A stretch of 64,000 bases of DNA from the NCBI GenBank assembly GCA_964400605.1, contig CAYNUH010000002.1:58866-122865 (forward strand). Direction: 5' to 3'. A program made the position numbers and the translations under genes. Shown here in pieces: positions 20,442 to 55,603 of the stretch. The notes beneath the pieces were generated by a model. The model saw only the letters and a list, made by a program, of their open reading frames with translations. It did no database searches and had not been told where the DNA came from. Position 1 is the first letter of the stretch. Each line of letters starts with the position of its first letter. This DNA comes from an uncultured Acidobacteriota bacterium. Lineage in GTDB: Bacteria; Acidobacteriota; Polarisedimenticolia; JACPZX01.

Positions 20442-20448
20442 CATCGCC

Positions 20449-23281: not shown

Positions 23282-23296
23282 CGAGGGCGAAGGACC

Positions 23297-29702: not shown

Positions 29703-30721
29703 ATGGCCATCAGGATCGGTCTGATGGGTTTCGGCAGGATCGGAAGGAACATCTTCCGGATCCTCTACCAGAGGGACGACGTGGAAGTGGCGGCGATCAG
29801 CGACATCGCCGACCATCGGGCTCTCGAATACCTGCTCAAGTTCGACACGGTGATGGGCCGCTTCCCGGACGAGGTGACCGTCCGGGACGGTTCCCTGATC
29901 GTGGGCGGGCGATCCATCCCTATGCTCTCGGGACGGGAGCCGGGGGACGTGGACTGGAAAGCCCACGGCGTGGACATCGTGGTCGAGGCCACGGCCCGCT
30001 ACCGCTCGCGCGCGGAGGTGCAGAAGCACCTCGACTCCGGCGCTCGCCGCGTCATCCTCTGCGTCCCTCCGGTGGACGAGCCTGACATCACCGTCGTCAT
30101 CGGCGTGAACGACCATCTCCTCACAGCGCGCCACCGGATCATCTCCAACGCCTCCTGCACGTCGAACTGCCTGGGTCCCATCGCGAAGGTTCTCCACCGC
30201 GCCTTCGGCATCCGGCAGGGGTTCGTGACGACCATCCACGCCTACACGAACGACCAGCGTCTCGCCGACGTGCCCGCGGACGACATGCGCCGCTCCCGGG
30301 CGGCGGCCGAGAATATCATCCCTACCGACACCCGGGCCCACGAGCTGGTGATGAAGCTGATGCCGGAGCTGGCGGGAAGGCTCGGGGGCGTGGCGATGAA
30401 CGTGCCTGTGCCGGACGGATCGGTGGTCGATCTGGTGGTTCAGCTCGAGAAGCACGCCACCGTCGAGGCGGTCAACGAAGCGGTCCGCACGGCGGCCGCC
30501 TCCGACCTCGCCGGCATCGTGGAGTACGAGACCGACCCCATCGTCAGCAGCGACGTGGTGGGAAACCCGCACTCCGCGGTCTTCGATTCGCTGGGCACGC
30601 AGATGATCGGCGGCGACCTCGTGAAGGTCCTCGCCTGGTTCGACAACGGCTGGGGGTATTCGAGCCGCGTGGTGGATCTCGTCAGGAAGCTCTCGTCGCT
30701 GCCGGCGGGGGAGGTAAGGCA

Positions 30722-30725
<4 letters not shown>
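29703..30725 (+). CDS. gap: type I glyceraldehyde-3-phosphate dehydrogenase (paralog 1)
   Basis: NGFGRIGR, ASCTTNCL (active-site Cys), and WYDNEWGYS (here WFDNGWGYS). Confidence 0.85.
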
Positions 30726-31723
<998 letters not shown>

Positions 31724-31750: not shown

Positions 31751-32191
31751 ATGGCTGAGAGACCCGATGACACCCGAAGACGGGTCGTGAACTGGATCCT
31801 GGGCGCGGGGACCGGTTCCGTCCTCGCGGCGATGATCTACCCCGTGATCCGGTTCATCAGCCCGCCCGATATCCCGGAGGCCCAGACGACGCGGGTTCTC
31901 GCCGGAAAGGTTTCCGAGATCAACGCCTCGGGCTTCAAGATCTTCAAGTTCGGTAACGACCCCGGGATCCTGGTCAAGTCGGGGGAGGGGGAGTACCGGG
32001 CCTTCTCCGCCACCTGCACCCACCTGGACTGCACGGTCCAGTACCGCAAGGACCTGCGCCAGATATGGTGCGCCTGCCACAACGGCCTGTACGACCTCAA
32101 CGGGGCCAACGTGTCGGGCCCCCCACCGAAGCCCCTCACGACCTACACGGTCAACGTGAGCGGCGACGACATCTACGTCTCGAAAGCCTGA
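31751..32191 (+). CDS. Rieske [2Fe-2S] protein of a cytochrome bc-type complex
   Basis: N-terminal TM anchor; Rieske boxes CTHLDC and CACHNG. Confidence 0.8.
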
Positions 32192-32192
32192 C

Positions 32193-33365
32193 GTGAAACG
32201 CGAGGCGCTCGTCGCCTGGCTCGAGGATCGGCTCGGCTGGAGCGCCCTCGTCGCGTTCGCACGCCACAAGACAGTCCCCGTGCACCGCCACAGCCTCTGG
32301 TACTACCTGGGAGGGATGACCCTCTTCTTCTTCCTGGTCCAGGTGGGGACCGGGATCCTGCTGATGCTCTACTACAGGCCGAGCGCGGACGAGGCGTACG
32401 AGTCGGTCCAATTCATCGTGACGCGGGTCTCCTTCGGCTGGCTGATTCGGTCGATCCATTCGTGGAGCGCGAACCTGATGATCGGGGCCGCGTTCATCCA
32501 TCTCTTCTCGGTCTTCTTCCTGAAGGCCTACAGGCGACCCAGGGAGCTCACGTGGGTGAGCGGCGTCATTGTGCTCTTCCTGGCGATGGGGTTCGGCTTC
32601 TCGGGGTACCTGCTTCCGTGGAACACGCTCGCGTACTTCGCGACCAAGGTCGGAACGGACATCGCCGGCTCGGTTCCCCTCGCGGGGGAGTGGGTGCTGC
32701 GGTTCCTGCGGGGCGGGGAGAGGGTGACCGGAGGGACGCTGTCGCGGTTCTACGGCTGGCACGTCGCGATCCTGCCCGCCGTGACCACGACGGCGCTGGG
32801 GCTGCATCTCCTGCTGGTCCAGAAGCACGGCATGAGCGTGCCGCCCTCCGAGGAGGGGAAAGCCGGATCGCCGCCGATGCCTTTCTTGCCCAACTTCCTC
32901 CTCAGGGACCTCTTCGGCTGGGCGGTGGCGCTCGCGATCCTGGCGGCGCTGGCCGCTTACGCGCCGTGGGAGCTGGGGGCGAAGGCCGACCCGTTCGCGC
33001 CCGCCCCCGCCGACATCAGGCCCGAGTGGTACTTCCTGTTCATGTTCCAGACGCTGAAGCTCGTGCCCGGAGGCGAGATCGCCGGCGTCGAGTACGAGGC
33101 CATCGCCATCCTGGTCTTCAGCCTCGGAGGGGCGCTGCTCCTGCTGGTTCCGTTCCTCGACCGCGGAGAGGCGTCAGGGACGGCGAGCCGCGTCATCACC
33201 GCCGCCGGATGGGCCGCCGTGATCTACATCACCGGCATGACGGCTGTCGGCTACGAGTCGCCGTGGCCCGTCGTCGCGCCGGGGGTGGCTCTGGCGCTGG
33301 TGTGGTTGATCGCAGCCCGCCGCGCCGCCGCGGACACTCCAACAGGTGGAGGCCCGCGAGCATGA
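32193..33365 (+). CDS. cytochrome b (fused b6-like plus subunit-IV-like) of the Rieske/cyt b complex
   Basis: About 8 TM helices; heme-ligating His pairs in helices B and D; PEWYFL motif. Confidence 0.8.
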
Positions 33366-34672
33366 TGTTCGCCGGCCGCAGACTCCCGTCCGCCCTTCCG
33401 GCGATCCTGAGCGCGTGGGCCGCGGCCGTGGCGGCCCCGGCGGGCGCGGGCGGCCAAGGCGCAGCCCGGGAGGAACCCTGCGTCTCGTGCCACCTGGAGC
33501 TGGCGGAGATATCCGGGGTTCTCGCCGCCCCCGCGCAGAAGTGGGCCGACGATGTCCACCGCTCGAAGGGCCTCACCTGCGTCTCCTGTCACGGAGGAGA
33601 CCCTTCTCCCGGCGCCGCGCGGGACGCCGATGCGGCCATGGACCCGACGAAGGGGTTCGTGGCGCGGCCGCCCCGCGCGCGTCTGGCCGAGTTCTGCGGC
33701 CGCTGCCATTCCGACGCGAAGTACATGAAGACGTTCAACCCCGCCGCGCGGGTGGACCAGGTGACCGAGTACCGCACGAGCGTGCACGGCGTCCGCAACG
33801 CCGCAGGCGACGAGAAGGTCGCCACCTGCATCAACTGTCACGACGTGCATGGGATCCAGCCCGTGTCGAGCCCGCGATCGCCCGCGTACCCGAAGAACGT
33901 GCCCGCCACCTGCGGCAAGTGCCACGCGGACGCCGCGCTGATGGGCTCGTATGGACTCAGGGGAAACCCGCTCGCCGATTGGATGAAAAGCACGCATGCC
34001 GAGGCGCTCCTGGAAAGAGAGGACCTTTCCGCCCCTGCCTGCAACGACTGCCACGGCAACCACGGAGCAGCGCCGCCCGGGGTGGCCTCGCTCGCCTTCG
34101 TGTGCGGTCAGTGCCATGCCCGAGAGGCGCTGCTCTTCAGAGACTCGTTCAAGAAGAACCTCTTCGACGAGACGGGGGCCTCGGAGTGCGTGACCTGTCA
34201 CGGCAACCACGAGATCCACCATCCGACCGACAGGCTGATCGGGACGGGCGCCGGGACCGTCTGCTCCCAGTGCCACGCGCCCGGAGACGAGTGCGACAAG
34301 CAGAGCGTGCAGATCCGGAAAACCATCGACGGCTATGCGCGCGCGCTCGGGGAGGCCCAGGACGTGCTCGGGCGCGCCGAGCGGGCCGGGATGGAGGTGA
34401 GCGGGGCCATCTTCACCCTCAAGAAGGAGGGGATCAGCGGTCTCGTGGAGACCCGGGCGCTCATCCACTCCTTCGACGCTGAGCGCCTGACCCGCAGGGC
34501 GGAAGAGGGATTGAAAGTGGCCTCCGACGCGCGCCGCCAGGGGGATGATGCCCTCGCGGAGGTTCAGTACCGGCGCAAGGGGCTGGCCGTGAGCCTCGTA
34601 TTCATCGGCGTCCTGCTGGCGGGGCTCTTCCTGAAGATCCGGGACGTGGACCGCCGTCGAAGCGCCCCCTAG
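33362..34672 (+). CDS. multiheme c-type cytochrome (9 CXXCH) with a C-terminal TM anchor
   Basis: ATGA overlap with cyt b. Signal peptide; nine CXXCH motifs (2x CVSCH, then CGRCH, CINCH, CGKCH, CNDCH, CGQCH, CVTCH, CSQCH); C-terminal hydrophobic helix. Confidence 0.8.
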
Positions 34673-35007
34673 GGGAGATCCTCCCAGCCGGCCATCTTCC
34701 GCCGCCTTTCCTGGGCGCGCCGCGCGGCGTCGGCTTCGAGGCCCTCCCTGACGGATCGCACCGACTCCAGGGCCCGGGTGCAGTGATCGCAGGCTCTGGA
34801 CGGCGACACGCAGGGGACCCCGTCGGCCTGGGCTTCCGCGCAGACGGGGCAGGCGGCCATCTCGAGGGCGCGATCCAACCGGCGCTTCAGGTCGGGATCG
34901 ATCTCGATCGGCAGGTGCTCTTGAAGCTCCCTGAGGGAATCGATCTCCGCCCGGAGCATCGTGCGGACGGAACGCGACGTGTGCGAGGCGGATGCGGGTA
35001 GAGGCAT
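34669..35007 (-). CDS. small Cys-rich hypothetical protein (two CxxC pairs)
   Basis: 112 aa after a GGGAGGG ribosome-binding site; contains CPVC...CDHC. The larger tracked ORF upstream lacks a ribosome-binding site. Confidence 0.35.
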   Translation of the reverse strand: MPLPASASHTSRSVRTMLRAEIDSLRELQEHLPIEIDPDLKRRLDRALEMAACPVCAEAQADGVPCVSPSRACDHCTRALESVRSVREGLEADAARRAQERRRKMAGWEDLP

Positions 35008-35329
35008 GATCGACCCTCCCGGGGGTCCTGGAGGGCCCCCTTCACGACAGGATCCTCGCAAGGAAGGTGCCAGACCCTTGAGGCGCTGAAACACGCAGCA
35101 CCCCGGAGCACCGGACGCTGCTCGAGTCGCGCCGCCACGAAGTATCCCGCATCCCTGCGGCGTCACACGCACCTCGAAATCGTCCGCAGCGCGGCGGGCC
35201 GTTCCCTGCCAGGGCCAGGGCATGCGACGCATCTTGCATTCCAGGTCCGGTAGCACAAAGATCAACCGAACGAAAGGACGTCAACCATCCATCCCCGCCG
35301 CTCTCGCGGGAGAAAATCAGAGGCGATCC

Positions 35330-35773
35330 ATGGCAGGCCTGAAGGATCACGTCCTGATCGTCGACGACGACCAGGCCCTCGCCACGCTCTACCGGGTGGA
35401 GCTGCAAGAAACGGGATACAGAGTCAGCGTTGCCCGCAGCAGCCAGGAAGCCATCGCCCAGGTCCAGAAGGACCGGCCGGACGTCGTCGTGATGGACATC
35501 CGGATGCCCGGCATGGACGGGCTCGAGCTCATGGGGAGGATCCTCTCCATCGATCGCCGCATCCGGGTCGTTTTGAACACGGCCTACGCCTCGTACCAGG
35601 ACTCGTTCTCGTCGTGGGCCGCCGACGCCTACGTCCTCAAGTCCTCGAACCTGCGTCTCCTGCTGGAGACGATCGACCGACTCCTCGCCGAGCCCGAGGG
35701 GCGTCCGACGGCGCAGGGGGCCCCCGCGAGGCCGGCATCGAGGTCGCCGCGCCCGCTCGCCAAGGCCGTCTAG
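35330..35773 (+). CDS. single-domain response regulator (CheY-like receiver)
   Basis: DDD...D(54)...K receiver signature and no output domain. Confidence 0.7.
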   Translation: MAGLKDHVLIVDDDQALATLYRVELQETGYRVSVARSSQEAIAQVQKDRPDVVVMDIRMPGMDGLELMGRILSIDRRIRVVLNTAYASYQDSFSSWAADAYVLKSSNLRLLLETIDRLLAEPEGRPTAQGAPARPASRSPRPLAKAV

Positions 35774-35779: not shown

Positions 35780-38032
35780 CTACCTCGGCGCCGCCGCCCG
35801 GGAAACACCGCGGAAGTGCGCCTTCGCAGGCCATCGCGCGGCAGCCGCATCCGTCGTGCGCTTCTCCTCACGGACCCTGTGCGCGGTCGCGACGGCGGAT
35901 CCGGCGCTCACGAGGAGGATGCCGAGCCAGAGCGCGTTCACCAGCGGCTTGGTGCTCACGTCCAGCGCCAGCGACTCCGGCGTGGCCGCGGCCTTGGGAT
36001 CGTTCAGGATAACGCGGATCGCCCCGCTCTCCACCTGCATCCCGGCGAGCCTTGCGGTGGGGCCGTCGCTCATGGGGATGGGGATCTGGGCGCTCTCGGC
36101 GCCCCCGGGAGACATCCTCAGAAGAAGCGTCATCGCCTCGGTGCGACCGTTCTGCGTCACGTCCACCACGGCGCCCACGCTCAGGCCCCCTCCATCCTCG
36201 GAGTGGGACTCGAACCTCCGGAAGGCGAAGGTGGAGGGCCCCCAGGGCTGGGCGATGTTCTTCACGAGCGTCAGGGAGGATTCGGGCCCCGCCGGGGGGT
36301 GGTGGCTGACGGGCGCGATGTACAGATCGCCCAGGAGCCCTCGTTCGATATGGGGCCGCGCGATAATCGTATCCCTCCGGGAGTCGCGGAACATGATCGG
36401 CGCCGCCACGTAGGGACTTCCACTCGCCGGCACGACGTCGATCTCGAAGTGGGCCTCATCGCCCGGTCCCGGCACGTACCTTCTCAGGGTGAGCTCGCGG
36501 TCGAAGACCTTGTGCGCGCGGCCCGCTTGGAGCGTCACCGGCTCGGTGCGGTCGAAGGCGGACGTGGCTACGATGCCGATGAACATCAGCGCGAGGCCGG
36601 CGTGGGCGATCCCGGCGCCCGTGGCCAAGGGACTCGATCCGATCTGCCTCGCCACACGGGTCAGACTGGCCACCAGAGCGCCCACGGCTGCGGCCAGCAG
36701 GAGCAGCACCGGGAAGCCGCCCCGGGGCGTCACGCCGAGCGCCCACGGCAGGGCGGCGGCCAGGATCCCGGCCGCCAGTCCCGGAGCGATCCTCCGCAGC
36801 AGATCCCGCCAGGTGGAGCCCGCCCAGGTCATCAGCGGCGCCGCGACCAGGAGTGCCGCCATGCCGATGCCCACGGGGAGGCTGGTCCGGTTGTAGAAGC
36901 CCGGGCCGGGGCTCGCGGGTCTCCCCGAGAGGCCGCTGAGGATCGGCCAGGAGGTGCCCACCACCAGCAGCGCCGTCGCCGCGAGGAGCAGGGCCATCCC
37001 CAACGCCAGCGCGGCGGGCAGGGAGATGCGCCACGAGAGATCGGGCGCCTTGAGCCACCGCCAGCGCATCAGCAGCAGCGCCGCCGTGAGGCCCGCGGCG
37101 ACCGCGATGGCGACCAACAGGGGCGTGTGCAGCCCGCGGTCGGCGAAGGAGTGGACGGAGAAGGAGGCGAGAACGCCGCTGCGCGTCATGAAAGTGGCGT
37201 ACAGCACGAGGACGTAGGCCATCCCCGCCAGCGCGAAGTTCGTCCGCTTCAGCGCACCGGTGGCCCTCTGGATCAGCAGCCCGTGGACAAGCGCCGCGGC
37301 GACCAGCCAGGGGGCCAGAGAGGAGTTCTCCACGGGATCCCACCCCCAGTAGCCGCCCCAGCCCAGGACCTTGTAGGCCCAGAAGCCTCCGATGAAGAGC
37401 CCCAGACCCAGGGAAAGGATCGAGAGTGAGACCCACGGGAGGACGCGCGGAATCCACGCGTCGGGCTCCCTGCGGGCCAGGGCCGCGAGCGCGAAGGCGA
37501 ACGGGATCGCGAAGCCGGCGTAGCCGATGAAGACGATGGGCGGGTGGATGGCCATCCACGGATCGATCAGCAGAGGGTTCAGTCCCGCGCCGTCAGGCGG
37601 CGGGGGCGCCGTCTGGAAGGGCTTGAGCGCCAGCAGGGGGACGAGGAGAAGGATCTGGGTGATGAGGAGGAAGGACATGACGGGGGACTCCCAGTCGTCC
37701 TTTCGCCTGAGGACCAAAACCCCCGCGGCGGCCTGGAAGAGCGTCCACAGGAGGAGCGTGCCCTCCTGCCCGCCCCAGAAGGCGCTGACCTTGTAGAGCA
37801 GCGGCGTGGCGCGGGAGGAGTAGTCCGCAACGTATGGGAAGCTGAAATCGTCGGAGAGGATCGCCGCCATGAGCAGGATCGACGCGGCCGCCAGCGACAG
37901 CGTCATGCCGATGTAGAGAGTCCGTGCCAGCCGGCGGGCCCCGCCAGCGCCGGACCAGGCGAGAAGGTACGCGGCGAGGGAGGCCCCTGCCGCTCCGAAC
38001 GCCGCGAAGAGCAAGGTGGTTCCCGGGTTCAT
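35780..38032 (-). CDS. ccmF: cytochrome c-type biogenesis protein CcmF/NrfE (heme lyase)
   Basis: WGGYWGWDPVEN (WWD domain) and a polytopic membrane topology across 750 aa. Confidence 0.8.
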   Translation of the reverse strand: MNPGTTLLFAAFGAAGASLAAYLLAWSGAGGARRLARTLYIGMTLSLAAASILLMAAILSDDFSFPYVADYSSRATPLLYKVSAFWGGQEGTLLLWTLFQAAAGVLVLRRKDDWESPVMSFLLITQILLLVPLLALKPFQTAPPPPDGAGLNPLLIDPWMAIHPPIVFIGYAGFAIPFAFALAALARREPDAWIPRVLPWVSLSILSLGLGLFIGGFWAYKVLGWGGYWGWDPVENSSLAPWLVAAALVHGLLIQRATGALKRTNFALAGMAYVLVLYATFMTRSGVLASFSVHSFADRGLHTPLLVAIAVAAGLTAALLLMRWRWLKAPDLSWRISLPAALALGMALLLAATALLVVGTSWPILSGLSGRPASPGPGFYNRTSLPVGIGMAALLVAAPLMTWAGSTWRDLLRRIAPGLAAGILAAALPWALGVTPRGGFPVLLLLAAAVGALVASLTRVARQIGSSPLATGAGIAHAGLALMFIGIVATSAFDRTEPVTLQAGRAHKVFDRELTLRRYVPGPGDEAHFEIDVVPASGSPYVAAPIMFRDSRRDTIIARPHIERGLLGDLYIAPVSHHPPAGPESSLTLVKNIAQPWGPSTFAFRRFESHSEDGGGLSVGAVVDVTQNGRTEAMTLLLRMSPGGAESAQIPIPMSDGPTARLAGMQVESGAIRVILNDPKAAATPESLALDVSTKPLVNALWLGILLVSAGSAVATAHRVREEKRTTDAAAARWPAKAHFRGVSRAAAPR

Positions 38033-38039
38033 GCGGATC

Positions 38040-39413
38040 TCAGAGATAGCCGAACTTCTTCATCTTGTAGCGGAGCGCGTCCCTGGAGATGCTCAGCATC
38101 TTGGCCGCGTGCGTCTGGTTCCCGTGGGTCTTCTCGAGGGCCTGTCGCACCATCTCGTTTTCCATCTTCTCCAGGGGGAAGCCTCTGTCCGGAAGTCTGA
38201 ACCCATTGGCGTCCGAGGCCTCCGCGCCGTGGACCGGCTCGCGGATCTCCTTGGGCAGGTCCGTGACGGTGAGATCGGGCTTGTTCTCGAGGATCATCGC
38301 CCTCTCGATGACGTTCTTGAGCTCACGGACGTTGCCCGGCCAGGAGTAGGCCATGAGCCGCTGAATCGCCTCCTCGGAGACGCCCTTCGTTGACTTCTTG
38401 AACTCCTGGTTGAAGCCGTCGATGAAATGGTTGACGAGAAGGTGGATGTCCGACACGCGCTCCCGCAGCGGCGGAAGGGAGATGGGGATGACCTTGAGCC
38501 GGTAGTAGAGGTCCTCGCGGAACGCCCTCTCCTTGACGGCCCTTTCCAGATCTCGGTTCGTGGCGGCGATGATCCGCACGTTCACCGTGATGTCCTTGAC
38601 GCCGCCCACGCGCTTGAAGGTCTTCTCCTGCAGGAAGCGCAGCACCTTGGCCTGCAGCAGGACGCCCATGTCGCCGATCTCGTCGAGGAAGACCGTGCCC
38701 CCGTCCGCCAGCTCGAAGAGCCCCTTCTTGAGAAACCTGGCGTCGGTGAAGGAACCCCGCTCGTGCCCCATCAGCTCGCTCTCGAGCAGCGTCTCGGGCA
38801 GCGCCGAGCAGGTGATGTTCATGAACGGCTGGTGGGCCCTCTCCGACGCGTAATGGATCGCCTTGGCCACCAGGTCCTTGCCCGTCCCCGACTCGCCGCT
38901 GATGAGCACGGTCGTCGCCTGGCTCTTGGCGATCTTTTCGATCAGCTCGAGCACCTCCAGGATCGCAGGGCTCTGGCCGACGATGTTGGTGAGCCCGTAC
39001 CGCTTCTCCTGCTCGGAGCGCAGATGCCGTACCTCGCGGCGCAGCCGGCTGGATTCCAGCGCCCGCGCCACCGCGACGGCCATCTCGTCGTGGTTGAACG
39101 GCTTGTTGATATAGTCGTAGGCCCCGAGCTTGATGGCCTCCACCGCGGTGTCCACGCTGCTGTAGGCGGTCATGAGGATGACGGGGATCTCGGGGCGCTC
39201 GGAGGTGACCCTGCGGAGGATCTCGATCCCGTTGGTGTCCGGGAGGCGGTAGTCCAGGAGGATGAGATCGATCACCTCCCGCGAGAGCATCTCGAATCCG
39301 CCGGCCCCGTTCTCCGCCTCGAAGACATCGTAGTGATCCTTCTTGAGCCGTTCCTTGAGGGACCAGCGGACGAGCTTTTCGTCCTCGATGATCAGAATCG
39401 CCTCGTTCGCCAT
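38040..39413 (-). CDS. sigma-54-dependent response regulator (NtrC family)
   Basis: REC domain, GESGTGKD, GSFTDA (a GAFTGA variant), C-terminal HTH; a GGAGGAAAGG ribosome-binding site. Confidence 0.85.
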   Translation of the reverse strand: MANEAILIIEDEKLVRWSLKERLKKDHYDVFEAENGAGGFEMLSREVIDLILLDYRLPDTNGIEILRRVTSERPEIPVILMTAYSSVDTAVEAIKLGAYDYINKPFNHDEMAVAVARALESSRLRREVRHLRSEQEKRYGLTNIVGQSPAILEVLELIEKIAKSQATTVLISGESGTGKDLVAKAIHYASERAHQPFMNITCSALPETLLESELMGHERGSFTDARFLKKGLFELADGGTVFLDEIGDMGVLLQAKVLRFLQEKTFKRVGGVKDITVNVRIIAATNRDLERAVKERAFREDLYYRLKVIPISLPPLRERVSDIHLLVNHFIDGFNQEFKKSTKGVSEEAIQRLMAYSWPGNVRELKNVIERAMILENKPDLTVTDLPKEIREPVHGAEASDANGFRLPDRGFPLEKMENEMVRQALEKTHGNQTHAAKMLSISRDALRYKMKKFGYL

Positions 39414-39645
39414 CTTGAGCCTTTCCTCCGGAGGCCGGATTCCACGTCCGCCGCGGCCGCTCGGGGGCGATTTAGCGCCACGCCGTTGTGCTGCGGGCAA
39501 CGCCCTGCCGATGGGCAACGGGCATGCCACACCGGCCGCCGCAGGATGCAGTGCAAGTGCTTGTGAGCAGGCGGGATCGCCGGCCCATCAGGCCACGGCA
39601 GGAGGTCCCGCGGGTGCGTATTTTAGCGCACCAGCGGGAAACCTC

Positions 39646-40146
39646 TCACTTCCAGTGCTTGATTTTCTCTTTGGCGGAGGCGAAGTCGAAGCCCTTGAAG
39701 TTCGGGCTCTTGGAGTTGTGGCAGGTGGTGCAGGCTTTCTCGTCCGGGATGATCAGGCCGAGTCCCACCGACTTCGCGTGGGCGGCCGCGCGGTCGGCCT
39801 GGTACTTTGCCTTGTTCATGACGTCCACGGCCTTGTAGAGGCTTCCGGGGCCGTGGCAGGACTCGCACTGGACGCCGTTGAGGTCGGCGCCCGCGGCCGC
39901 GGGCCTGCCGTACCCGGTGATGTGGCAGCCGGCGCACTCCGCTTTCGTGCGCTCCTCGGGCTTGAGGACCTCGATGGCCTTCGCGTGGGCGGTCGCCATC
40001 CAGACCTTGTGCTCGTTCAGGTGGCACGCCTTGCACTTGGCCGCGCCGACGTACTGCGCCTCCGCGGCGGCCGAGAGGCCCGCCGCCGCGGCGATCATCA
40101 CCACAGCCGCGATCCCGATCAGGAAGCCCTTGCCGCTTCTCTGCAT
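39646..40146 (-). CDS. tetraheme c-type cytochrome (periplasmic)
   Basis: Signal peptide; four CXXCH motifs (CKACH, CAGCH, CESCH, CTTCH) in 166 aa; an AAGGAGG ribosome-binding site. The long tracked ORF upstream is read-through. Confidence 0.75.
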   Translation of the reverse strand: MQRSGKGFLIGIAAVVMIAAAAGLSAAAEAQYVGAAKCKACHLNEHKVWMATAHAKAIEVLKPEERTKAECAGCHITGYGRPAAAGADLNGVQCESCHGPGSLYKAVDVMNKAKYQADRAAAHAKSVGLGLIIPDEKACTTCHNSKSPNFKGFDFASAKEKIKHWK

Positions 40147-41472
40147 GGAGCCGCCTCCTTGAATGGAACGTCCGCCGTCGCCGGGAAGGTGAGGGTCACC
40201 GTGGTCCCGGCTCCGGGGGAAGTCGACAGATGGATCCGTCCGTTGTGGGCCTCCACGATCGTGCGGACGATCGGAAGGCCGAGGCCCGTGCCTCTGGCCT
40301 TGGTCGTGAAGAAGGGCTCGAAGGCCCGCGCCTCGGTCGCTCCCGCCATGCCGCAGCCGGTGTCGCTGAACCGGATCCGCACGAAGGCCCCGTTTCGCTC
40401 CGTGGTCACCGTCAGTGTACCTCCCGGCGCCATCGCCTGGTAGGCGTTGGTGACCAGGTTCTGGAACGCCTGCTCGGCCCGGGCCGGGTCCACCTCGGCG
40501 TGGAGCGGCCCAGGCGCGAACTCGCGGGCGACGCGCTTCCCGGCCGCCTCGTTCGTGGAGGCGGCGGACGCGAGCACCCGGTCCAGGACGCGGTGGATGT
40601 CTGTGGGCTGGGGGAGGAGCCGCCCGGGGCGCGCGTAGGCGAGAAGGTCGTTCACGATGTGGGCGATGCGCGCCACCTGAAGCTCCACCTCCTCGCCGAC
40701 GCCCTCGGGAAGCTCCTTCCAAAGATCACTACCCTTCAGCACCTCGACGGTGCCCGCGATCCCCGCGAGGGCGTTGCGAACCTCATGGGCGATGCTGGCG
40801 GCCGTCTCGCCGATGGCGGCAAGCTTCTCGGCCTGGATGAGCCTCGCCTCCATCTCCTTCTCCGCCGTGATGTCGCTGACGATGGCGGAGGAACCGATCA
40901 TGCTGCCTTCCGCGTCGCGCAGGATCGATCGGGTGATCCGAACGTTGATGGTGGTCCCGTCCTTGCAGACCCGCCTTGTCTCGAAGTTCCGCACGAAGCC
41001 GTCCGTCCTAACCGCCTCGAGGATGCGCTCCGGCTCGCCGGCCTCGATGAGGTCGCGCGGGAAGAGGACGCGCACGTTCCGGCCCACGATCTCCGGGGCC
41101 GTGTAGCCGTAGATCTCCTCTGCGGAGCGGTTCCACGACCGGATGATGTCGTCGCTGTCGATGCTGACGATCGCCTCGCCGGCGTCCTGCACGATGTTCT
41201 CGAAGAAGAGCCGCATCCGGCGGGCCTCGTGCGACTGGCGGCGCAGCTCCTCCTCGTAGCGTCGCCGGTAGCGCATCAGGAGGTAGGCGGTCAGGGCCGA
41301 CATGATGATCGCTGTCGAGACGCCGCGCGTCAGGTAGAAGAAGGGCATGCTGGCCGGGTCCACGAAGGTGGCGAGATACGCCTCCAGCATCTCCCAGGTG
41401 GCGAAGATCACGAGCATCACCCCAGCGAGGATCCCGATCATTCTCCTGATGCTGAGGGCCACGACGCCTCCG
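40119..41472 (-). CDS. PAS-domain sensor histidine kinase
   Basis: Two N-terminal TM helices, PAS (IVSIDSDDIIRSWNRSAEEIYGY), H-box HEVRNAL and HATPase. Start is either the GTG at 41472 or the ATG at 41451; the upstream 350 aa of the tracked ORF is noise. Confidence 0.75.
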
Positions 41473-41855
41473 TTTCCCGCCGTACTCGGTTCCCGCCAAG
41501 TCCGGCGGGATTCCCGTCCACGACGCCGCCAATCATCGCAACCGACATGCCAGCGGATCCGTGGGGCGCTGAACCGTCTAAGACCTTTGGATTCAGGGCG
41601 TCGGGCCCGCCGGCCGGCCCCGGCCGGAGGGACATGTGGGTCAGCCGACGCACCGGTGCGCGGGAGGACTGCCGGGCGGCTCGCACAGGGGGCCCCCACT
41701 ATCCTCCTGCGTCCCCAGCGGCGTCCGCGGCTGCGGGCCGCAGGGAGTCGCCGCTTGGTCGCGTGGGGGCCGCCGCGTCGTGGAGCCCGGGGCTCCGGTT
41801 CGGGAGGTGGGCGGCCGGAGTTCCCGGCAGAGCCGGGATGGGTTACCATGGGTCC

Positions 41856-42347
41856 ATGCCATTGTTCGCCGACGCTCTCCGTGTGATCAACGGGATGAAG
41901 GGCGACGGCGTCGTTGAAGACTATGCCATCGCCGGGGCGATGGCGCTGGTGTTCTGGACCGAGCCGATCCCGACCTTCGACCTCGACTTTCTCGTGTTCC
42001 TGCCCGGTGACGAGGCGACCATCGTCAGCCTCGAACCGATCTACCGCTGGACGGCGGAGCGCGGCTACAGGACGCAGGCCGAGCACGTGATGATCGAGGG
42101 AGTGCCGCTGCGGTTCCTGCCGGCCCACAACGCCCTCGCTGATGAGGCGATTGAGCGGGCCGCGACGCTCGAGTACGAGGGAGTGCCCGTACGTGTCGTC
42201 AGGCCTGAGTACCTCGCGGCGCTCTATCTGGAGCCAGGCGCACGCACACTGAAGCGGCGGGAGCGGGCCGCCGCGCTCAGGGAATCGCCCACGATCGATC
42301 TGGCCGTGCTCGAGGGCCTCCTCAAGCGGTTCGATCTGGAGCCCTGA
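41856..42347 (+). CDS. hypothetical protein, possibly a minimal nucleotidyltransferase-fold protein
   Basis: 163 aa with a GDG...DLDFL pattern reminiscent of the Pol-beta NTase fold. Orphan gene between two operons. Confidence 0.35.
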   Translation: MPLFADALRVINGMKGDGVVEDYAIAGAMALVFWTEPIPTFDLDFLVFLPGDEATIVSLEPIYRWTAERGYRTQAEHVMIEGVPLRFLPAHNALADEAIERAATLEYEGVPVRVVRPEYLAALYLEPGARTLKRRERAAALRESPTIDLAVLEGLLKRFDLEP

Positions 42348-42350
42348 GAC

Positions 42351-42563
42351 ATGGCCGGGGCGCCTCGCCGGAGACCGCGGCCGACCCCGGAGTTGACGGC
42401 CGCACTGCGGGCCGGCAAGGCCGAACTCCACCGACAGCGTGCCCACATGCGGCTCCGCGAGAAGGTTCGGATCGTTCTCGAGCTGCAGCGCATCTGCCTG
42501 CCGCTCGTCGAGCACCAGCGTCGGCTCGCGCCCTGGGAACGGCCCTGGCCGGTCGTGCCGTAA
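42351..42563 (+). CDS. small hypothetical protein (70 aa), possible partner of the preceding gene
   Basis: Starts 4 nt after the stop of the previous gene. Arg-rich helical sequence. Weak call. Confidence 0.2.
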   Translation: MAGAPRRRPRPTPELTAALRAGKAELHRQRAHMRLREKVRIVLELQRICLPLVEHQRRLAPWERPWPVVP

Positions 42564-42846
42564 CGATCTCGAGCGACGCGGGTACGCGGCAGCGATAACG
42601 ATTTCGCGCCTCGCCGCCGCCGTGGAGTCCAGCTTCGAGGGTTCCTCCGCATCGATTCCGGTCCCACCACCGTAAGCCGAAGCGCGAACTGCTCGGTCTT
42701 CCTCGTCAGTCGGTGCAGCGAGGCCTTCCGCTGGGGACGTTCTGGTTGAGGCCGACGCCGGAAGCCCCTCCTCTAGGGTGGGCCCTTCGCCGCCGGGAGG
42801 CGCACGCGGTCACAGCTTGAAGCTCACGGCCGGCTCGGCAGAGCCA

Positions 42847-44928
42847 TCAGGGACCTTGGCTGTAGCCGGGGATGGCGGCCATCTCGGCGTCGATCTGGGC
42901 CAGTTGAGCGAGCGCGGAGGCCCGCGCGTCCCTCTCGTTCAGCGAGAGCGGCCAGGGGAGGCCGGTGAGCTGGGCCTCGATCTCCTCCAGGTCCCTTCTG
43001 GCCGTCTCGTACTGATAGCGGGCGGTCTTCGGGTCCTGGGCGGCCGCGCTTCGCGCCAGCGTCCGGTACGTGCGGGCCCTCGTGCGCAGGAGGACGAGTC
43101 GGTAGGAGAGAGGCAGGTCGCTCAGGCGATCGCGCGCCGCGTCGAGGAAGTGGATCGCCGCCACGTGATCCGCCTCCCGCCGCACGAGAACGCCCTGATC
43201 GCGGTCGAATCGGCGGAACGGGTAGCTGAGGTTCACGCCCAGCGCGAGGTTGGCGTACGGGGCGTACATGCTGCCCGGGTGCTGCCGGGCGATCTCCTCG
43301 AGGTTTCTCTTCCCCCGCTCGAGGTGGTCACCCCCCAGGAAGCGCAGAAACCTCCGCGACTCGGGCTCGGTGATGAGGGCGTAGGCGTCGGGGGCGTAAG
43401 CGTCGGGGGTGAAAGCGGGCGCGAACGGCATCGGGGCGATCGAAACCTCGACCGGGGCGGATCTCGCCGCCACGGAGTAGGGTGCCGGCGGGACAGCCGC
43501 CAGGCCAGGGGGCGCGCTCCGCGCCGTCATGCCGGTCAGGCTCGCCATCACGTGGATGCCGGGGGCGGCGGCTGCACCTCCGTCGTGCAAGGCCACGCCC
43601 TGGGGAGCGGCGGGTACGTCGAGATCGATGCCGGTGACGCTCACGCTTGCCGTGAGCGGCGTGCTCTTGAGGCCCGCCTCGTCGGCGAGGAAGGGGATGG
43701 AGTCGGACTGGAGGTCGTTGGGATCCGGCGAGGAGCCGGTCCAGAGCTTCAGGTAACCGAGCGCCGGATCGAGGCTGCGCTCGGAGAGGTACTCGACGAT
43801 CCCCTCCCCATTCGGGTCCACGTTGACGACGACGCGCACGCGGACCGGCTCGCCGGGGATGTAAGAATCTTTCTCGGGGACGACGACGAGGTTCAGCCAC
43901 GACGGCGCCGATCCAGCCTCCGCCAGCGCCCGAGTGGAGCAGAGGTCGCCGCAGGCGCTCGCCGTCGTGCCATGCATCTTTCTCTCGTGCGCGTTCGGAT
44001 CCACGTCGCACCAGTCGGAGCCGTGCCAGCCTGGACGCACCTCGACGCGGGAGTGGCTGCCGACATGCTCGAGGGCCCAGGCTCCGAAGGCCCACGTCGT
44101 CCCGGGGCAGTCGTCCGCCCTGCAGACGCTGTCGCAGGCGATCTCGGCGTGGTGAAGGTTGAGCACGTGTCCCAGTTCGTGGATGGCCGTCGCGAGCCGG
44201 TCCCCGTCCGATGTGTGGGCGCAGTAGTGCACGACAAAGTCCTCGCGGCAGCGGTTCCCGCACTCGATTGCCGCCAGGCCGCCCAGATGGCCGAGGGGGC
44301 TCGACTCCAGCCAGATCTCGCCCTTGTAGTTGCAGCTCCCGCCGGACTTGTCCCAGCAGCAGGGAAGCGCCAGTCCGTGCGCGTACCAGAAGCCGTACAG
44401 GGACCAGAAAGACGTCCCGCCCTTCATGTCCTGTGTCGAGTCGACGAGCCCAGCGATCTCGCCACGTTCGAAGCAGATCTCCTCGTAAGCGTTGGGAAGG
44501 TTGGTGTCTCTGAGGACGTCGCAGGCCGGCCCCCCCAGCCTCAGCGAGTCCAGCGCCAGCGTGTTCGGATCCGGGACTGAGGGCCGACCCCGCGGAACGG
44601 TCAACCGTGTGTAGGAGAACGGCTGCTCGTCGATCATCACGAGGATCCCCGCCTTGCTGAACGCCCCGCCGAGGGTGGCGCCGCCGGCGGAAAGGACGGG
44701 CTCGTAGTCTCTCAGCTCGTCAAACTCCACCAGGAGCAGGGGGAGCTGGATGGACGGAGACCAACTCAGCGTGTCGCACTCCACGTGGAGCCAGCCGCCC
44801 AGCAGCAGCGGCAGGAGAGCCGCCGCCAACCGGCCGAGCACGCCTCCGCGCGGCCGCACCCTCCCGGCGGATCCCGCCTCCGCGCCGAGGCCGCTACGGC
44901 TTCTGGGGAGGGTTGTGAATCGGGCCAT
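42847..44928 (-). CDS. secreted zinc-dependent metalloprotease (HExxH zincin) with a Cys-rich domain
   Basis: Signal-peptide-like N-terminus; AIHELGHVLNLHH; many Cys; last gene of the ECF-STK-CHAT operon. Confidence 0.6.
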   Translation of the reverse strand: MARFTTLPRSRSGLGAEAGSAGRVRPRGGVLGRLAAALLPLLLGGWLHVECDTLSWSPSIQLPLLLVEFDELRDYEPVLSAGGATLGGAFSKAGILVMIDEQPFSYTRLTVPRGRPSVPDPNTLALDSLRLGGPACDVLRDTNLPNAYEEICFERGEIAGLVDSTQDMKGGTSFWSLYGFWYAHGLALPCCWDKSGGSCNYKGEIWLESSPLGHLGGLAAIECGNRCREDFVVHYCAHTSDGDRLATAIHELGHVLNLHHAEIACDSVCRADDCPGTTWAFGAWALEHVGSHSRVEVRPGWHGSDWCDVDPNAHERKMHGTTASACGDLCSTRALAEAGSAPSWLNLVVVPEKDSYIPGEPVRVRVVVNVDPNGEGIVEYLSERSLDPALGYLKLWTGSSPDPNDLQSDSIPFLADEAGLKSTPLTASVSVTGIDLDVPAAPQGVALHDGGAAAAPGIHVMASLTGMTARSAPPGLAAVPPAPYSVAARSAPVEVSIAPMPFAPAFTPDAYAPDAYALITEPESRRFLRFLGGDHLERGKRNLEEIARQHPGSMYAPYANLALGVNLSYPFRRFDRDQGVLVRREADHVAAIHFLDAARDRLSDLPLSYRLVLLRTRARTYRTLARSAAAQDPKTARYQYETARRDLEEIEAQLTGLPWPLSLNERDARASALAQLAQIDAEMAAIPGYSQGP
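43381..43410 (+). repeat. 15-bp perfect in-frame tandem duplication
   Basis: gcgtaggcgtcgggg / gcgtaagcgtcgggg encodes PDAYA-PDAYA inside the metalloprotease. Confidence 0.5.
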
Positions 44929-45664
44929 GGTTCGGGCCTCCCTTCACGTGGACCTCAATGCTGGTGACGTCAGTCCAGGATCCGTCGGGAGTCCTACCCT
45001 TGAAGACCTCGACGACGTGGTTGGCCTCCTTGGCGAGGGTGAAGGTGTATTTGCGGTGCAGCCCCTGCGGTCCGGACTTCACGGAGAGGCCGTTATCCCG
45101 GTTCTCCCACAGGGTGATCCCGCCGCGGAAAGGCTCGAAGTACTTGTGGAGCGACTTGGGCTTGCCGGTGTTGGTGTCGATCGGGAACTGCCGAGGAAGG
45201 TCCGCGAGGCTCATCGGAGGAAAGGATGGGAACGCCTGGCTACCCCTGGCCACGATGTTGATCCAGATCGCGTAATTGGGATCGCTGACGCTGAACTCCG
45301 CCTCCGAGATCGTCTTGACGAGGGAGCCGTCGTTCTTGTGCAGCGTGACGGAGTCGAGCTCGCTCGCCGGCTGCCCCCCCGTGTACGGGATGGCCTTGCC
45401 GAGCTGGAAGACGACCCCGTGCCAGAGCCTCTCTCTTTCCACCCAATTCCCGCCCTGGTACGTGAAGGTGTTGTTCTCGGCCATCCAGACAGCCGTGTCG
45501 TCGTCGTGGATGACAAGGGTCACTTCAGGCCCCCCCGCGACGATCGGAATGCCGACGAGTTGCAACTGGGGGGGCCTGGAGTAGAAGAAGTAGGAAAGAG
45601 CGAGCAGGGCCAGGATGGCCACGGCGAGAGATAGCGCCATCACTTGCGTCACATTCCGTTCCAT
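44894..45664 (-). CDS. membrane-anchored (signal-anchor) periplasmic hypothetical protein
   Basis: A GGAGGA ribosome-binding site; MERNVTQVMALSLAVAILALLAL TM; beta-rich soluble domain with no recognised family. Confidence 0.5.
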   Translation of the reverse strand: MERNVTQVMALSLAVAILALLALSYFFYSRPPQLQLVGIPIVAGGPEVTLVIHDDDTAVWMAENNTFTYQGGNWVERERLWHGVVFQLGKAIPYTGGQPASELDSVTLHKNDGSLVKTISEAEFSVSDPNYAIWINIVARGSQAFPSFPPMSLADLPRQFPIDTNTGKPKSLHKYFEPFRGGITLWENRDNGLSVKSGPQGLHRKYTFTLAKEANHVVEVFKGRTPDGSWTDVTSIEVHVKGGPNHGPIHNPPQKP

Positions 45665-45715
45665 TTTGGTCCTCCAAGCGGCGGCCCGAGGCCGCCGCAT
45701 CCGTCCGTCACGCGC

Positions 45716-48700
45716 TCAACGCCACTCTCCGGCCGCGACGAAGCCGCCCCAGGTGAAGGGGTCGGTTTCCCTCCCGGCCTCTCTCCGCCGCCGCAGGATC
45801 TCACGGCTCGCTTCGCGCACCGCCTCGGCCGTGCCGAGCCGGTCGCGGAGGCGCTTCTCGTACAGGATCCTCATCCACTCCCTCGCGGCGCGGTCCTCCA
45901 CCGGCCAGAGGCTCATGATCACCGTCCGGGCTCCCGCGATCTGAAAGGCGCGCCGCAATCCGAGCACCCCCTCGCCCGGACGGATCTCGCCGCCCCCAGT
46001 GTCGCAGCCCGACAGGACCGCCCACTCGACGCCCGCGAGGTTCAGCGTGGCGATCTCCGCCGCCGTCAGGATCCCGTCTTCCTCCTCAGGCGCCGCGGCG
46101 TCGCGCCGGTTGGCGCCCGCGAACGCGAGGCCAGCGAGGAGCAGGGGGTTTTCGTCCGTGGGAAGCGTCTGCGGCTCCGCGCTCACCGCGGTCGCGAGGC
46201 TTCCAATGCCGCGGCGGCCGGTCTCCTCCGTGGCGGCAGGACAGCCGCCGTCGAGGAAGAAGCCGTGTGTCGCGAGATGGAGGATCCGCCGTCCGGGCGC
46301 CGCCTCCTTGAATGCTGCTTCGGTCGCGCGGGGGCCGGCGAGGTACAGGGCGTTGCCAGCTTGTCCTTGTGGGGCCGCGCTCCTCCAGAGCGCCATGACT
46401 TCCTCCGCCTCCGCCCCGGAGGCTGGAAGGTCCCCGAACCGAAGCGTCCGGAGATCGCCGCAGGCGCGGCGCTCGCCCCTGAAGGAGCCCCCCGACCGAT
46501 CGGAACCAGGAGGGCTCCCCGGCGGCCGGACGGCCGCGAGTGCCGCCGCGGGCTCCTCGGGCCGCTCGTCGAAGGCCGGCCCGCCGAGCGCGAGGAGCCC
46601 CGCGCCGAGCGGCGCCGGGTCGCCGGAGGCGGCCACGTCCCGCTCGGCCGACAGGTAGTGGAAGAGGGGCCCCGACTCGATCAGGTAGGCTCCGTGGCCA
46701 TCGGGGAGCGCCGCGAAGCTCACCCTGTGGAGCGCGCCGTCCGGCACGATGAAGACGGCGGCGGTCCCGCTGACCGAACGGGCGACGGGGTCCCAGATCG
46801 CGCGGCGCAGGGCGTCGCCCGCGGTCCCGCCAGCGTCGAGGATGGGACCCGCGGGGGCCTCGCGAGATCCGCGGTGCTCCAGGATCTCGGCGCGCCAGCG
46901 CGCGACGGCGTGGTGGACCGCGCCAGCGGGGCCGAGATCGACGAAGCGGGGTTCGCCTCCTTCAGAAGAATGCACGAAGGCGGCGTACCTGCTCGCTGCC
47001 TTCCCCGGGTCCCGGAGGTCGTCGTAGAGCGTGTAGGCCACGAGCGCCGTCCCGGCTGGGAGCTTTCGCGTGATCTCCTCCAGACCGATCCCCTTCCGGC
47101 CGCCGGAGGGGGCGGGTGAGGCGCCGGACTCGGCCAGGAGACGCTCCAGCCGCTCCTTTTCCGCCCGCAGCGCCTCGAGGCGGGAGCGGTACGCGGCCAG
47201 GTTCTCGGCTTCCGATCCGCGCAGCGACTCCTGCGCCAGCCGTCGGGTGACCTGGATCAGATCCGAAGACAGCAGAGCGGCCTCCCCGATCGCCGTTTCC
47301 CCGGCGGAGCGCATGCGGGCGGCCATCTCGTCCAGGACGAGCGCGCGTGATCGGACGACGGCGTCCCACACTCTCCCACCCGCTCCCGGGATCCCTCCCG
47401 TCGCCGCTACCGTGAGGGCGAGATCGAGGGCCGAGGACCTGACCTCCGCATAGCGAAGCGCCTGCCTCTCGGGGAGCGTCCGCACCGTCAGGATCAGGTG
47501 TTCCCGACCGATCGCCTCGGCCAGGAGAGCCTGATCGAGCGCCGCCGAGGATTGCCCGCCCGCGAAGAGGACGAGGGCGAGATCTCTTCGGATCTCGGCC
47601 ACCTTCGGGTGCTGCGGCCCGAGGCTCCTCTCGGCGTTCCGCAGCGCTCGTTCGCCGGCCGCGCGCGCGCCCGCGAGGTCGCCCTCCTGGAGGTCCAGCC
47701 GCGCCGTCCCGCGGAGGGCCTCGGCCACGAGAGGATGCTCGCCGCCGACGGAGCCTCCAAGGATCCCGAGGGCGCGGCTGTAAAGCGCGCGGGCTTCTTC
47801 GCGATCGCCCGCCGTCGCGCGGAGGCCCGCGAGCCCCACGAGGCTTCGGGCGATCTCCGGGTGGGTGGCGCCCAGGTGCTTCTCCCGGATCGCGAGCGCC
47901 GCCTCGCAGAGGTAGCGCGCCCGGAGAGGATCCCCCATCTCGGCGAGGAGCAGTCCCAGACGCTCCTGGCTCCACGCGAGGTCGATGTGGCCGGGCCCCA
48001 GGGTGTGGCGCCGGATCTCGAGGGCGCTCTCGTACATCTCTCGCGCGCCCGACAGATCCCCAGTCCAATGGAGCAGCTCCGCGAGATCGTCCATGGTCTT
48101 CGCAACGCCGCGATCCTCGGGGCCGAGGGCCTTCCTCTGGATCTCTAGCGCGCGCTCGTAGAGGGAGCGCGCCGCGGCGTAGTCCCCTTCGCTGACGTGG
48201 TTATAGGCGAGATTGCTGAGGCTCCACGCGACGTGGAGGTGGTCGCCGCCAAGGCGCTTCTCGCGGATCGCCAGTGCACGCTCGTACAGATTCCGCGCGC
48301 GGGAGTACGCGCCCTCGGCCTCATGAAGCTCCGAGAGCCCGGTGAGCGTCCAGGCCACGTCGAGGCTTTCGGGGCCGAGGATCTCCTCCTGAATCGAGAG
48401 GGCTTCCTCGTACCGGGCCATCGCCCCTTTGTAATCGCCGCTTCCGTGGAGGGCAATTGCGAGGTTGTTCAGAGTCATCGCGACGTCGGCGTGCCGGCGG
48501 CCGTACGCCGCAGTGAGGATCCGCAGGGCCGCCTCGTAATCGCGGATCGCGGTGCGGTAGTCGCCGGAGCCGAACGACAGCCCGGCGAGATCGATGAGCG
48601 TCCGGGCGACGTCCGGGTCGTCCGGGCCGAGGAGCTTCCTCCTTAGCGCGAGGACACGGCGGTAGAGGCGGCCGGCCTCCGGGGTGTCGCCGGCCGCCTC

Positions 48701-51526: not shown

Positions 51527-51879
51527 GGCACCCCCCGTGCCGGGGGCGGTCCCGAGGCCGCATCCGGGGCCGCCGGACGCGCGCCGGAACCCGCCGCCTT
51601 CCGCTCCCGCCGCGGGCCCACGGGAGGAGCGACTCGGGCGTTGCGGCGGCCGTCACCGCTCCAGGGCTCGACGGGGCGGCCGCTCGCGAGATGGGTCCGA
51701 TTCCAGGATGAATCCTGCGAGATTAACGAGCAGCCATCCTATCGTGGACGCCCGCCGGGTGTCAACGAACAGGCCATCCCGTCGCGAGGATCGGCCAGGA
51801 CGTCCCCTTGGGGCCCGCGAGGCGGGAGCCCGAGCCACTCCCCGAGTTCACGCTGCTCCGCCGCGCGCTGAAAGGTTGT

Positions 51880-52261: not shown

Positions 52262-52320
52262 GTTCGAAGAGGATCGCCCGAGGGTTACCGGATCGCCTAT
52301 GGGCCCGACCGAGGGCGATG

Positions 52321-53580: not shown

Positions 53581-53632
53581 CGTGCGGCCGCTGGCCGGCC
53601 GCAACGGAGTATATCCGACGCCCGTCCGGGCG

Positions 53633-55482: not shown

Positions 55483-55603
55483 CTCCACGCCTCCGTAGAG
55501 ACTTTCAGCAACCCGCGTACCAACCGATGGCGTCGCGTGACCGCCGCTTGGCCGCCGTTCGGCGGCCGAGCGCCCGCGGTGGCACAGGTGCTGCTACAGA
55601 AAG

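Follow-up and report, generated by a model that had tools for sequence, protein, structure and literature searches.

What does a tetraheme cytochrome c do when its gene is wedged between those of a membrane sensor kinase and an NtrC-type response regulator, with a cytochrome c heme lyase gene directly downstream? This question is raised by a minus-strand locus in the window, by which we mean the whole 64-kb stretch of DNA analysed here (G+C ~70%), from an uncultured Acidobacteriota bacterium. A first-pass annotation had read the four genes as one operon, in which the cytochrome could be the actual redox sensor presented to a PAS-domain kinase and cytochrome maturation would come under the same sigma-54 control. 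Comparison with related loci suggests another layout of the same parts, namely a sigma-54 two-component module of three adjacent transcription units in an uncultured Acidobacteriota lineage, with the tetraheme cytochrome as the likely input of the kinase. We give this reading, which is drawn from sequence comparison, a probability of roughly 0.45. The genes concerned are the following.

40119 to 41462, minus strand: membrane histidine kinase with Pfam domains PAS (61 bits), HisKA and HATPase_c.
40154 to 40160, minus strand: AAGGAGG ribosome-binding site of the cytochrome gene, within the 3′-end of the kinase gene, read from the sequence.
39646 to 40146, minus strand: c554-type tetraheme cytochrome, periplasmic, 166 amino acids, with a signal peptide and four CXXCH motifs.
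38040 to 39413, minus strand: NtrC/AtoC-type sigma-54 response regulator (Pfam and NCBIfam: REC, AAA+, HTH_8).
35780 to 38032, minus strand: CcmF-type heme lyase subunit, 750 amino acids, with Pfam PF01578 (Cytochrom_C_asm) and PF16327 (CcmF_C).
34669 to 35007, minus strand: conserved Cys-rich cytoplasmic protein of ~100 amino acids, in a 112-amino-acid open reading frame recognised by alignment.
52321 to 53604, minus strand: protoglobin-coupled histidine kinase (Pfam).

The open reading frame list and the sequence agree on four co-directional genes between 41462 and 35780, and together with Pfam they bear out the kinase, cytochrome, NtrC-type regulator and CcmF of the first-pass annotation. 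Its upstream end at 41472 is not a start codon; the likeliest starts of the kinase are GTG 41462, which has a GGAGG 5 nt upstream, and ATG 41441. The fine structure of the junctions, as given in the first-pass annotation, is also present in the sequence. The AAGGAGG site lies where it was described, the cytochrome ATG at 40146 gives an overlap of 28 nt with the kinase stop codon (40121-40119), and the ccmF ATG at 38032 comes 7 nt past the TGA of the regulator.

Eight related loci of Acidobacteriota share this arrangement, in most cases preceded by the protoglobin kinase. Neighbourhoods were taken from homologues of the cytochrome (65–79% identity) and of ccmF (56–69%). The order protoglobin kinase, PAS kinase, cytochrome and sigma-54 regulator is found in L099, L100, L101, L103, L105, L107 and L108, and partly in L104, and is therefore not a product of chance. 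The kinase and cytochrome genes overlap or abut in the window, L099, L100, L101 and L103. The window proteins were also found on JGI and Logan contigs; their nearest named relatives are Acidobacteria metagenome-assembled genomes (MAGs), and kinase homologues at a greater distance carry the label Candidatus Polarisedimenticolia. Clusters of multiheme cytochromes with beta-barrel proteins have been reported as common in such MAGs (PMC8528874).

Are the four genes one operon? All of them are co-directional and closely packed, and simple scans for sigma-70 and terminator consensus sequences, together with Rfam, gave no matches between 34 and 43 kb, neither a sigma-70-type promoter nor a canonical U-tract terminator. 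A scan for the sigma-54 -24/-12 pattern (TGGCAY-N5-TTGC) gave a different picture. It found four matches in the window against 0.08 expected. Three of these are minus-strand elements that closely precede genes of the module, and they are kept in up to seven related loci. The elements predicted around these matches are listed below.

41637 to 41652, minus strand: dyad TGCG-N8-CGCA with one mismatch, candidate upstream activator site 100 nt upstream of the kinase promoter.
41538 to 41552, minus strand: sigma-54 -24/-12 promoter of the kinase-cytochrome unit, TGGCATGTCGGTTGC, from the pattern scan and conservation.
39606 to 39639, minus strand: GC-rich hairpin just past the cytochrome stop (-29.8 kcal/mol, z -3.8).
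39630 to 39615, minus strand: dyad TGCGCTAAAATACGCA, inside the hairpin and 101 nt upstream of the regulator promoter.
39515 to 39529, minus strand: sigma-54 -24/-12 promoter of the regulator-ccmF unit, TGGCATGCCCGTTGC, from the spacer alignment.
35156 to 35171, minus strand: TGCG-N8-CGCA dyad without mismatch, 99 nt upstream of the small-protein promoter.
35058 to 35072, minus strand: sigma-54 -24/-12 promoter of the small Cys-rich protein gene, TGGCACCTTCCTTGC, from the pattern scan.

The first-pass annotation had suggested a search for a further sigma-54 promoter ahead of the kinase gene, and one exists as a conserved sequence element at 41552-41538. It is conserved in position in L100, L101, L103, L105, L107 and L108, with a TTGA variant in L099. 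The regulator promoter recurs in the same six loci and in L085, and the promoter of the small Cys-rich protein gene has equivalents before the orthologues in L105, L107 and L108. The single-operon layout would require the internal sigma-54-like elements and the hairpin to be chance, non-functional features behind one upstream promoter. When the 200–250-nt cytochrome-regulator spacers of four loci are aligned, TGGCA and GTTGC are invariant and the rest is poorly conserved; the internal TGGCAY-N4-GTTGC element stands out from a diverged spacer of ~230 nt and occurs in nine loci. The spacer itself is out of line with the coupled junctions, measuring 232 nt as against -28 nt and +7 nt. Five of the six loci have a strong GC-rich hairpin of 10–13 bp immediately beyond the stop codon of the cytochrome gene (z -3.7 to -4.5); these hairpins differ in sequence from locus to locus, and the one in L105 is followed by a U-tract, as in a textbook terminator. 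The hairpin at 39606 to 39639 is probably a terminator as well. Transcription of all four genes from one upstream promoter alone is accordingly improbable, and the single operon of the first-pass annotation gives way, on this computational prediction, to probably at least two transcription units. Because of the conserved sigma-54 promoters and the hairpins after the cytochrome stop, we predict three: kinase-cytochrome, regulator-ccmF and the small Cys-rich protein gene.

The dyads may explain how these units are tied together. With at most one mismatch allowed, TGCG-N8-CGCA occurs at -96 to -101 from the -24 element of 11 of 20 module promoters, in all three promoter classes, where 0.0057 would be expected per promoter. 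An unbiased dyad search over 23 promoters gave raw counts no better than those of shuffled sequences, and only the clustering of TGCG-N8-CGCA near -100 stood out. We regard these dyads as candidate activator sites at which the regulator may bind. The fourth exact match to the promoter pattern (11790-11804, plus strand) falls in an acetyl-CoA hydrolase/transferase gene, either inside it or at its start, and is probably a chance match.

The regulator has the domains expected of a protein acting at such sites, PF00072, PF00158 (Sigma54_activat, 225 bits), PF25601 (AAA lid) and PF02954 (HTH_8). Its sigma-54 contact loop reads GSFTDA in place of the canonical GAFTGA, with the F and T kept and the fifth residue changed from G to D, and G(S/A)FTDA is found in every regulator orthologue (10; L086, L099-L108). 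A second sigma-54 regulator in the window (23282-24643) carries the canonical GAFTGA. Like NtrC/AtoC/ZraR-type systems, the module combines a REC, AAA+ and HTH_8 regulator with a HisKA kinase, and has -24/-12 promoters with a dyad ~100 nt upstream; positive autoregulation may be supposed. It differs from them in that two kinases (PAS and protoglobin) flank it and that the targets are cytochrome-related genes. AtoS and AtoC are the best-scoring NCBIfam models, yet the window proteins fall far below the equivalog cut-offs.

Does the cytochrome inform the kinase? The first-pass annotation had imagined contact between the cytochrome and a periplasmic loop of the kinase, but there is essentially no such loop. 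The kinase has two transmembrane (TM) helices joined by ~10 variable residues, and its sequence contains neither a CXXCH motif nor a CXXCH-bearing N-terminal PAS/Cache-like domain. Since the PAS domain follows TM2 and is cytoplasmic, it cannot be in contact with a periplasmic cytochrome, and with so short a loop any signal must pass through the membrane helices. The residues at their periplasmic ends (W..E, Y..R..T) are at least 85% conserved. The idea of the cytochrome as redox sensor of the PAS kinase gains support as to the partnership, which is conserved in the clade and fused in a subclade, and falls as to the PAS domain as the receiving surface.

The fused subclade offers the most direct evidence for such a partnership. 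In L105 the kinase and the cytochrome form a single open reading frame of 617 codons, and a search with this protein found six more (P0246-P0251) that carry both HATPase_c and Cytochrome_C554. The seven distinct fused sequences (P0245-P0251; 58–72% identity) stem from four sources of assemblies (JGI, ENA, Logan and NCBI), and the fusion was confirmed inside a full module in L107 (an NCBI MAG) and L108 (ENA). An AlphaFold model of P0245 confirms the domain order, with a helix at residues 446-474 where the model has low confidence (48–61). P0250 has lost the PAS domain precisely, which leaves the architecture TM1-TM2-DHp-CA-TM3-cytochrome. In rough neighbour-joining trees P0249 stands apart from the other six fused sequences, which suggests at least two fusion events. 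The architecture is rare, as among the top 150 matches in a library of 1.84 billion representatives only one 50%-identity cluster, that of P0250, reaches across the junction of kinase and cytochrome. The fusions, including the PAS-less P0250, support the cytochrome as the input partner of the kinase.

The same proteins bear on another explanation, in which the cytochrome is cargo. It would then be an ordinary periplasmic electron carrier, like c554 in Nitrosomonas, with its gene behind that of the kinase because both belong to the regulon; the kinase would sense something else through its cytoplasmic PAS domain, and the fusions would be tolerated by-products of the gene overlap from which free cytochrome is still released, by way of the internal ribosome-binding site and ATG or by signal peptidase. 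Every fused protein does keep K/QEE...M (the codons encoding the ribosome-binding site, and the Met) and a plausible signal-peptidase site. Set against this, the fused frame has stayed open over ~30–40% sequence divergence and in three independent assemblies, and the linker helix (LG.xGGLL.A) is better conserved than the signal peptides of unfused cytochromes, which is not what a disposable signal peptide would lead one to expect. The kinase itself lacks a periplasmic domain, and the PAS-less P0250 offers no alternative input domain through which it could sense.

The cytochrome itself resembles an electron carrier. It belongs to the Cytochrome_C554 family PF13435 (52 bits against a cut-off of 20.8), and its family profile matches Nitrosomonas europaea cytochrome c554 with an E-value of 1.5e-19; the fold matches as well. 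This close homology is a point in favour of cargo. Its CXXCH motifs (CKACH, CAGCH, CESCH and CTTCH at residues 38, 71, 94 and 139) are all invariant among 29 homologues, in which H54, M110 and H164 are the sole further invariant potential heme ligands. Cytochrome c554 has a five-coordinate heme. As there are three candidate distal ligands (two His and one Met) for four hemes, one heme of the window cytochrome may by analogy be five-coordinate too, if the ligands map as we suppose. Differences from N. europaea c554 (CycA; PDB 1BVB/1FT5) are a shorter chain (~136 mature residues as against 211), an invariant Met near a distal-His position of c554, and no link of the gene to those for hydroxylamine oxidoreductase, none of which was found in the window. 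The score against the CycA equivalog NF043010 (NCBIfam) was 65.9 bits, short of the cut-off of 400.

Several observations weigh against the cytochrome as kinase input, and some of them speak for cargo. At the level of the family, the association with signalling genes is uncommon. A scan of a genome collection with the cytochrome alignment listed only distant matches (at most 49% identity) and was used for kinase linkage, not for orthologues; among the matches listed, ~5–6 of 80 other genomes have a histidine kinase or sigma-54 response regulator within 3 kb of a c554-like gene. The first-pass annotation had named conservation of the cytochrome away from two-component genes as evidence against its proposal, and this is what was found in the family at large, in ~75 of the 80 genomes among the matches listed. 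A scan of metagenomes with the single cytochrome protein gave 14 loci, of which only L085 and L086 were informative. In a sister clade (L102 and L086), an orthologous regulator (66–69% identity, with the G(S/A)FTDA loop) is paired with a protoglobin kinase alone; no PAS kinase is present, and the cytochrome gene comes third, following those for an MtrA-like decaheme protein and an MtrB/PioB porin. There the cytochrome looks like a regulated electron carrier in an MtrA/MtrB-like operon. The more distant orthologous pair in L109, a kinase of 53% identity with a sigma-54 regulator, is accompanied by neither cytochrome nor ccmF, and so the kinase can work without a cytochrome. The signal peptide of the unfused cytochrome varies, looks cleavable and ends in AEA|Q, so that the protein is probably soluble, which leaves its signalling to a loop of ten residues unexplained. 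All fusions fall within one 50%-identity cluster, P0249 is known from a single 3-kb contig, and the dyad is degenerate or absent across most promoters of the fused clade. Co-regulation of a heme lyase would also suit a programme that simply increases cytochrome output. Taking both sides together, we think cargo alone the less likely of the two, though a serious rival, and the cytochrome is probably the periplasmic redox input of the kinase.

In the two sister-clade loci, the operon for the MtrA-like protein, the MtrB/PioB porin and the c554-type cytochrome is divergent from the protoglobin kinase and sigma-54 regulator genes (L102, 4612-8492; L086, 3878-7798), which suggests a globin-controlled porin-cytochrome conduit.

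What, then, is the heme lyase gene doing here? Its product passes the Pfam domain cut-offs, and the WWD motif WGGYWGWDPVEN and the His residues in AIHPP, LVHGL, SVHSF and IAHAG align with CcmF of Thermus thermophilus (6ZMQ; E 2.6e-65), in which the four His comprise two periplasmic and two transmembrane heme b ligands. It misses the CcmF/NrfE cut-offs of NCBIfam (TIGR00353, 261.9 against 569; TIGR03145, 262.5 against 927). The gene follows the regulator in seven of nine module loci (the window, L101, L103, L104, L105, L107 and L108, not L099 and L100), with a gap of 7–25 nt in the window, L105, L107 and L108, and is almost certainly transcribed from the conserved sigma-54 promoter of the regulator. 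To this extent the expectation that cytochrome maturation shares the sigma-54 control holds. It cannot be extended to maturation as a whole, as no ccmABCDE and no ccmG/H (or NrfF/G) partners were found in the 64 kb of the window, nor in the related module loci. L106 carries a ccmABCDE-F operon with a 42%-identical CcmF homologue, and for this reason the window gene may be a relocated general CcmF.

Dedicated CcmF paralogues beside the genes of their clients are known, NrfE and SirE being examples (PMC6976685). Like nrfE and sirE, the window ccmF adjoins client or regulatory genes and is apart from ccmABCDE (PMC6976685); unlike NrfE/SirE and CcmF, it has no ccmH-, nrfF- or nrfG-like partner and no ccmABCDE nearby. 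A search for unusual heme motifs showed the nearby cytochromes to have canonical CXXCH sites, with a single CX3CH in a NapC/NirT-like protein. A further idea is a maturation-feedback loop, in which the kinase would read the heme loading or folding of a sentinel cytochrome and tune sigma-54 transcription of ccmF so that lyase capacity follows demand. The client-adjacent paralogues (PMC6976685) would fit such a loop, as would the fact that no other co-transcribed target of the regulator is as consistent as ccmF. So would the related locus L109, where cytochrome and ccmF are both missing and a System II ResB-CcsA gene lies nearby instead. The loop is nonetheless hard to reconcile with L099 and L100, which retain the kinase, cytochrome and regulator with no ccmF at the locus, and the four canonical CXXCH sites of the cytochrome require no special lyase. 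It is also without precedent, and we consider it a long shot.

The third predicted unit encodes the small Cys-rich protein, which has the pattern P.C.E.QADG.PC.S....C..C.RALE. A Pfam search with it gave no match; it shares ~40% identity with the orthologues in L101 and L105 and 36% with that in L100. Between this gene and ccmF lies one further gene.

35327 to 35773, plus strand: stand-alone receiver-domain protein, convergent with ccmF (Pfam).

Its orthologue (62% identity) occupies the equivalent position in L100.

The module may then be pictured as follows, where genes, domain families, conserved promoters, hairpin, synteny and fusions are observed, and the cytochrome as input, the identity of the signal, the dyad as binding site and the sign of regulation are all inferred from sequence. 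The first unit would supply two translationally coupled products, a membrane kinase that lacks a periplasmic sensor domain and a secreted tetraheme cytochrome of the c554 type; the second, the NtrC-type regulator and then the CcmF-type heme lyase subunit; and the third, the small Cys-rich cytoplasmic protein. The cytochrome would equilibrate with the periplasmic electron-transfer chain, or bind a small ligand at its possibly five-coordinate heme. Its state would be relayed to the kinase at the periplasmic ends of the two TM helices, where residues are conserved, or, in the fused relatives, through the third TM helix. The PAS kinase and the neighbouring protoglobin kinase would together set the phosphorylation of the regulator, which would bind the dyad ~100 nt upstream of each promoter and activate the genes for the kinase and cytochrome, for itself and CcmF, and for the small protein. 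More tentatively, a tetraheme c554 cytochrome wired or fused to the C-terminus of a kinase might monitor periplasmic electron transfer or maturation and so set sigma-54 transcription of the heme lyase.

A few kinases and transducers with covalent heme c are known. Geobacter GSU0582 and GSU0935, Desulfovibrio DcrA and Cache_heme proteins carry one, rarely two, hemes c in an N-terminal PAS/Cache-like domain (PMC8396549). As in those proteins, a periplasmic covalent heme c is proposed to report redox state or diatomic ligands (PMC8396549; bioRxiv 10.64898/2026.05.25.727664). In those transducers, however, the heme domain sits between two TM helices of the transducer itself, whereas here a four-heme c554 fold is either a separate protein or is placed C-terminally, after the catalytic domain, by way of a third TM helix.

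A second parallel is offered by the intramembrane-sensing kinases of the BceS-BceAB and LiaS-LiaF systems, which rely on accessory proteins. The window kinase resembles BceS and LiaS in that its two TM helices are joined by a minimal extracytoplasmic loop and that a genetically coupled partner is presumed to be the true detector. In those systems the partners detect cell-envelope stress and are membrane transporters or membrane proteins, whereas here the partner is a soluble or TM-tethered multiheme redox protein, and most of the kinases have a cytoplasmic PAS domain as well. Literature searches found no description of a c554-kinase pair or fusion, nor of sigma-54 control of ccmF, and no earlier description of a "transmitter first, sensor last" architecture.

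Other features of the window deserve mention in their own right. The protoglobin kinase, which in relatives lies directly upstream of the PAS kinase, is here split from it by a block of ~10.8 kb (41600-52300) that is absent from all syntenic relatives. This block encodes a plus-strand pair of small genes (41856-42347 and 42351-42563) with no Pfam match, proteins of 693 and 268 amino acids likewise with no Pfam match, a 1163-amino-acid CHAT and TPR protein, a Ser/Thr kinase with DUF4384, an ECF sigma factor and a 125-amino-acid TPR protein. It has the appearance of an inserted cassette, signalling or defence-like in kind. Beyond it, a sigma-54-like TGGTAC-N5-TTGC (55522-55508) precedes genes for a nine-heme cytochrome (55488-54475), a diheme-b-like membrane protein and the protoglobin kinase, and a divergent TGGCAC-N5-CTGC (55580-55594) precedes a conserved open reading frame of ~71–85 amino acids. 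L100 and L103 have both elements, and L101 has the divergent one. The TGCG-N8-CGCA dyad was not seen at either the multiheme or the divergent promoters.

Further redox genes are found on the plus strand. A Rieske protein, a cytochrome b and a nine-heme cytochrome c are encoded at 31751-34672, where the nine-heme frame differs from the cytochrome b frame; in relatives one gene of ~800 amino acids covers both, and the frame break may reflect a genuine split, a frameshift or a fault in the assembly. Beside them lie tandem glyceraldehyde-3-phosphate dehydrogenase genes (29703-31723), a tandem kept in L100, L101 and L104. A pair of Fe-S (Fer4_11) and NrfD-like membrane proteins is followed by a HAMP kinase and the second sigma-54 response regulator (19575-24643). 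The NapC/NirT-like multiheme protein with one CX3CH (CGQTCH) among its CXXCH sites is encoded at 59009-61057. At 62330-63999, on the minus strand, a gene for a hemerythrin-domain protein adjoins one for a CRP/FNR-type regulator, with a sigma-54-like TGGCGC-N5-TTGC at 63064-63050.

Periplasmic and extracellular redox sensing in bacteria that respire with multiheme cytochromes is poorly understood. If the cytochrome is merely cargo, an ordinary, well-conserved sigma-54 regulon remains. If it is the kinase input, a kinase welded to a four-heme electron-carrier fold would be a new and directly testable design for redox sensing, for which the PAS-less fused P0250 would be a natural minimal construct. 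The locus would also be the first case found in which a two-component sigma-54 switch controls the gene of a cytochrome c heme lyase, and such a switch would bear on how Acidobacteriota of sediment and groundwater tune their cytochrome inventory.

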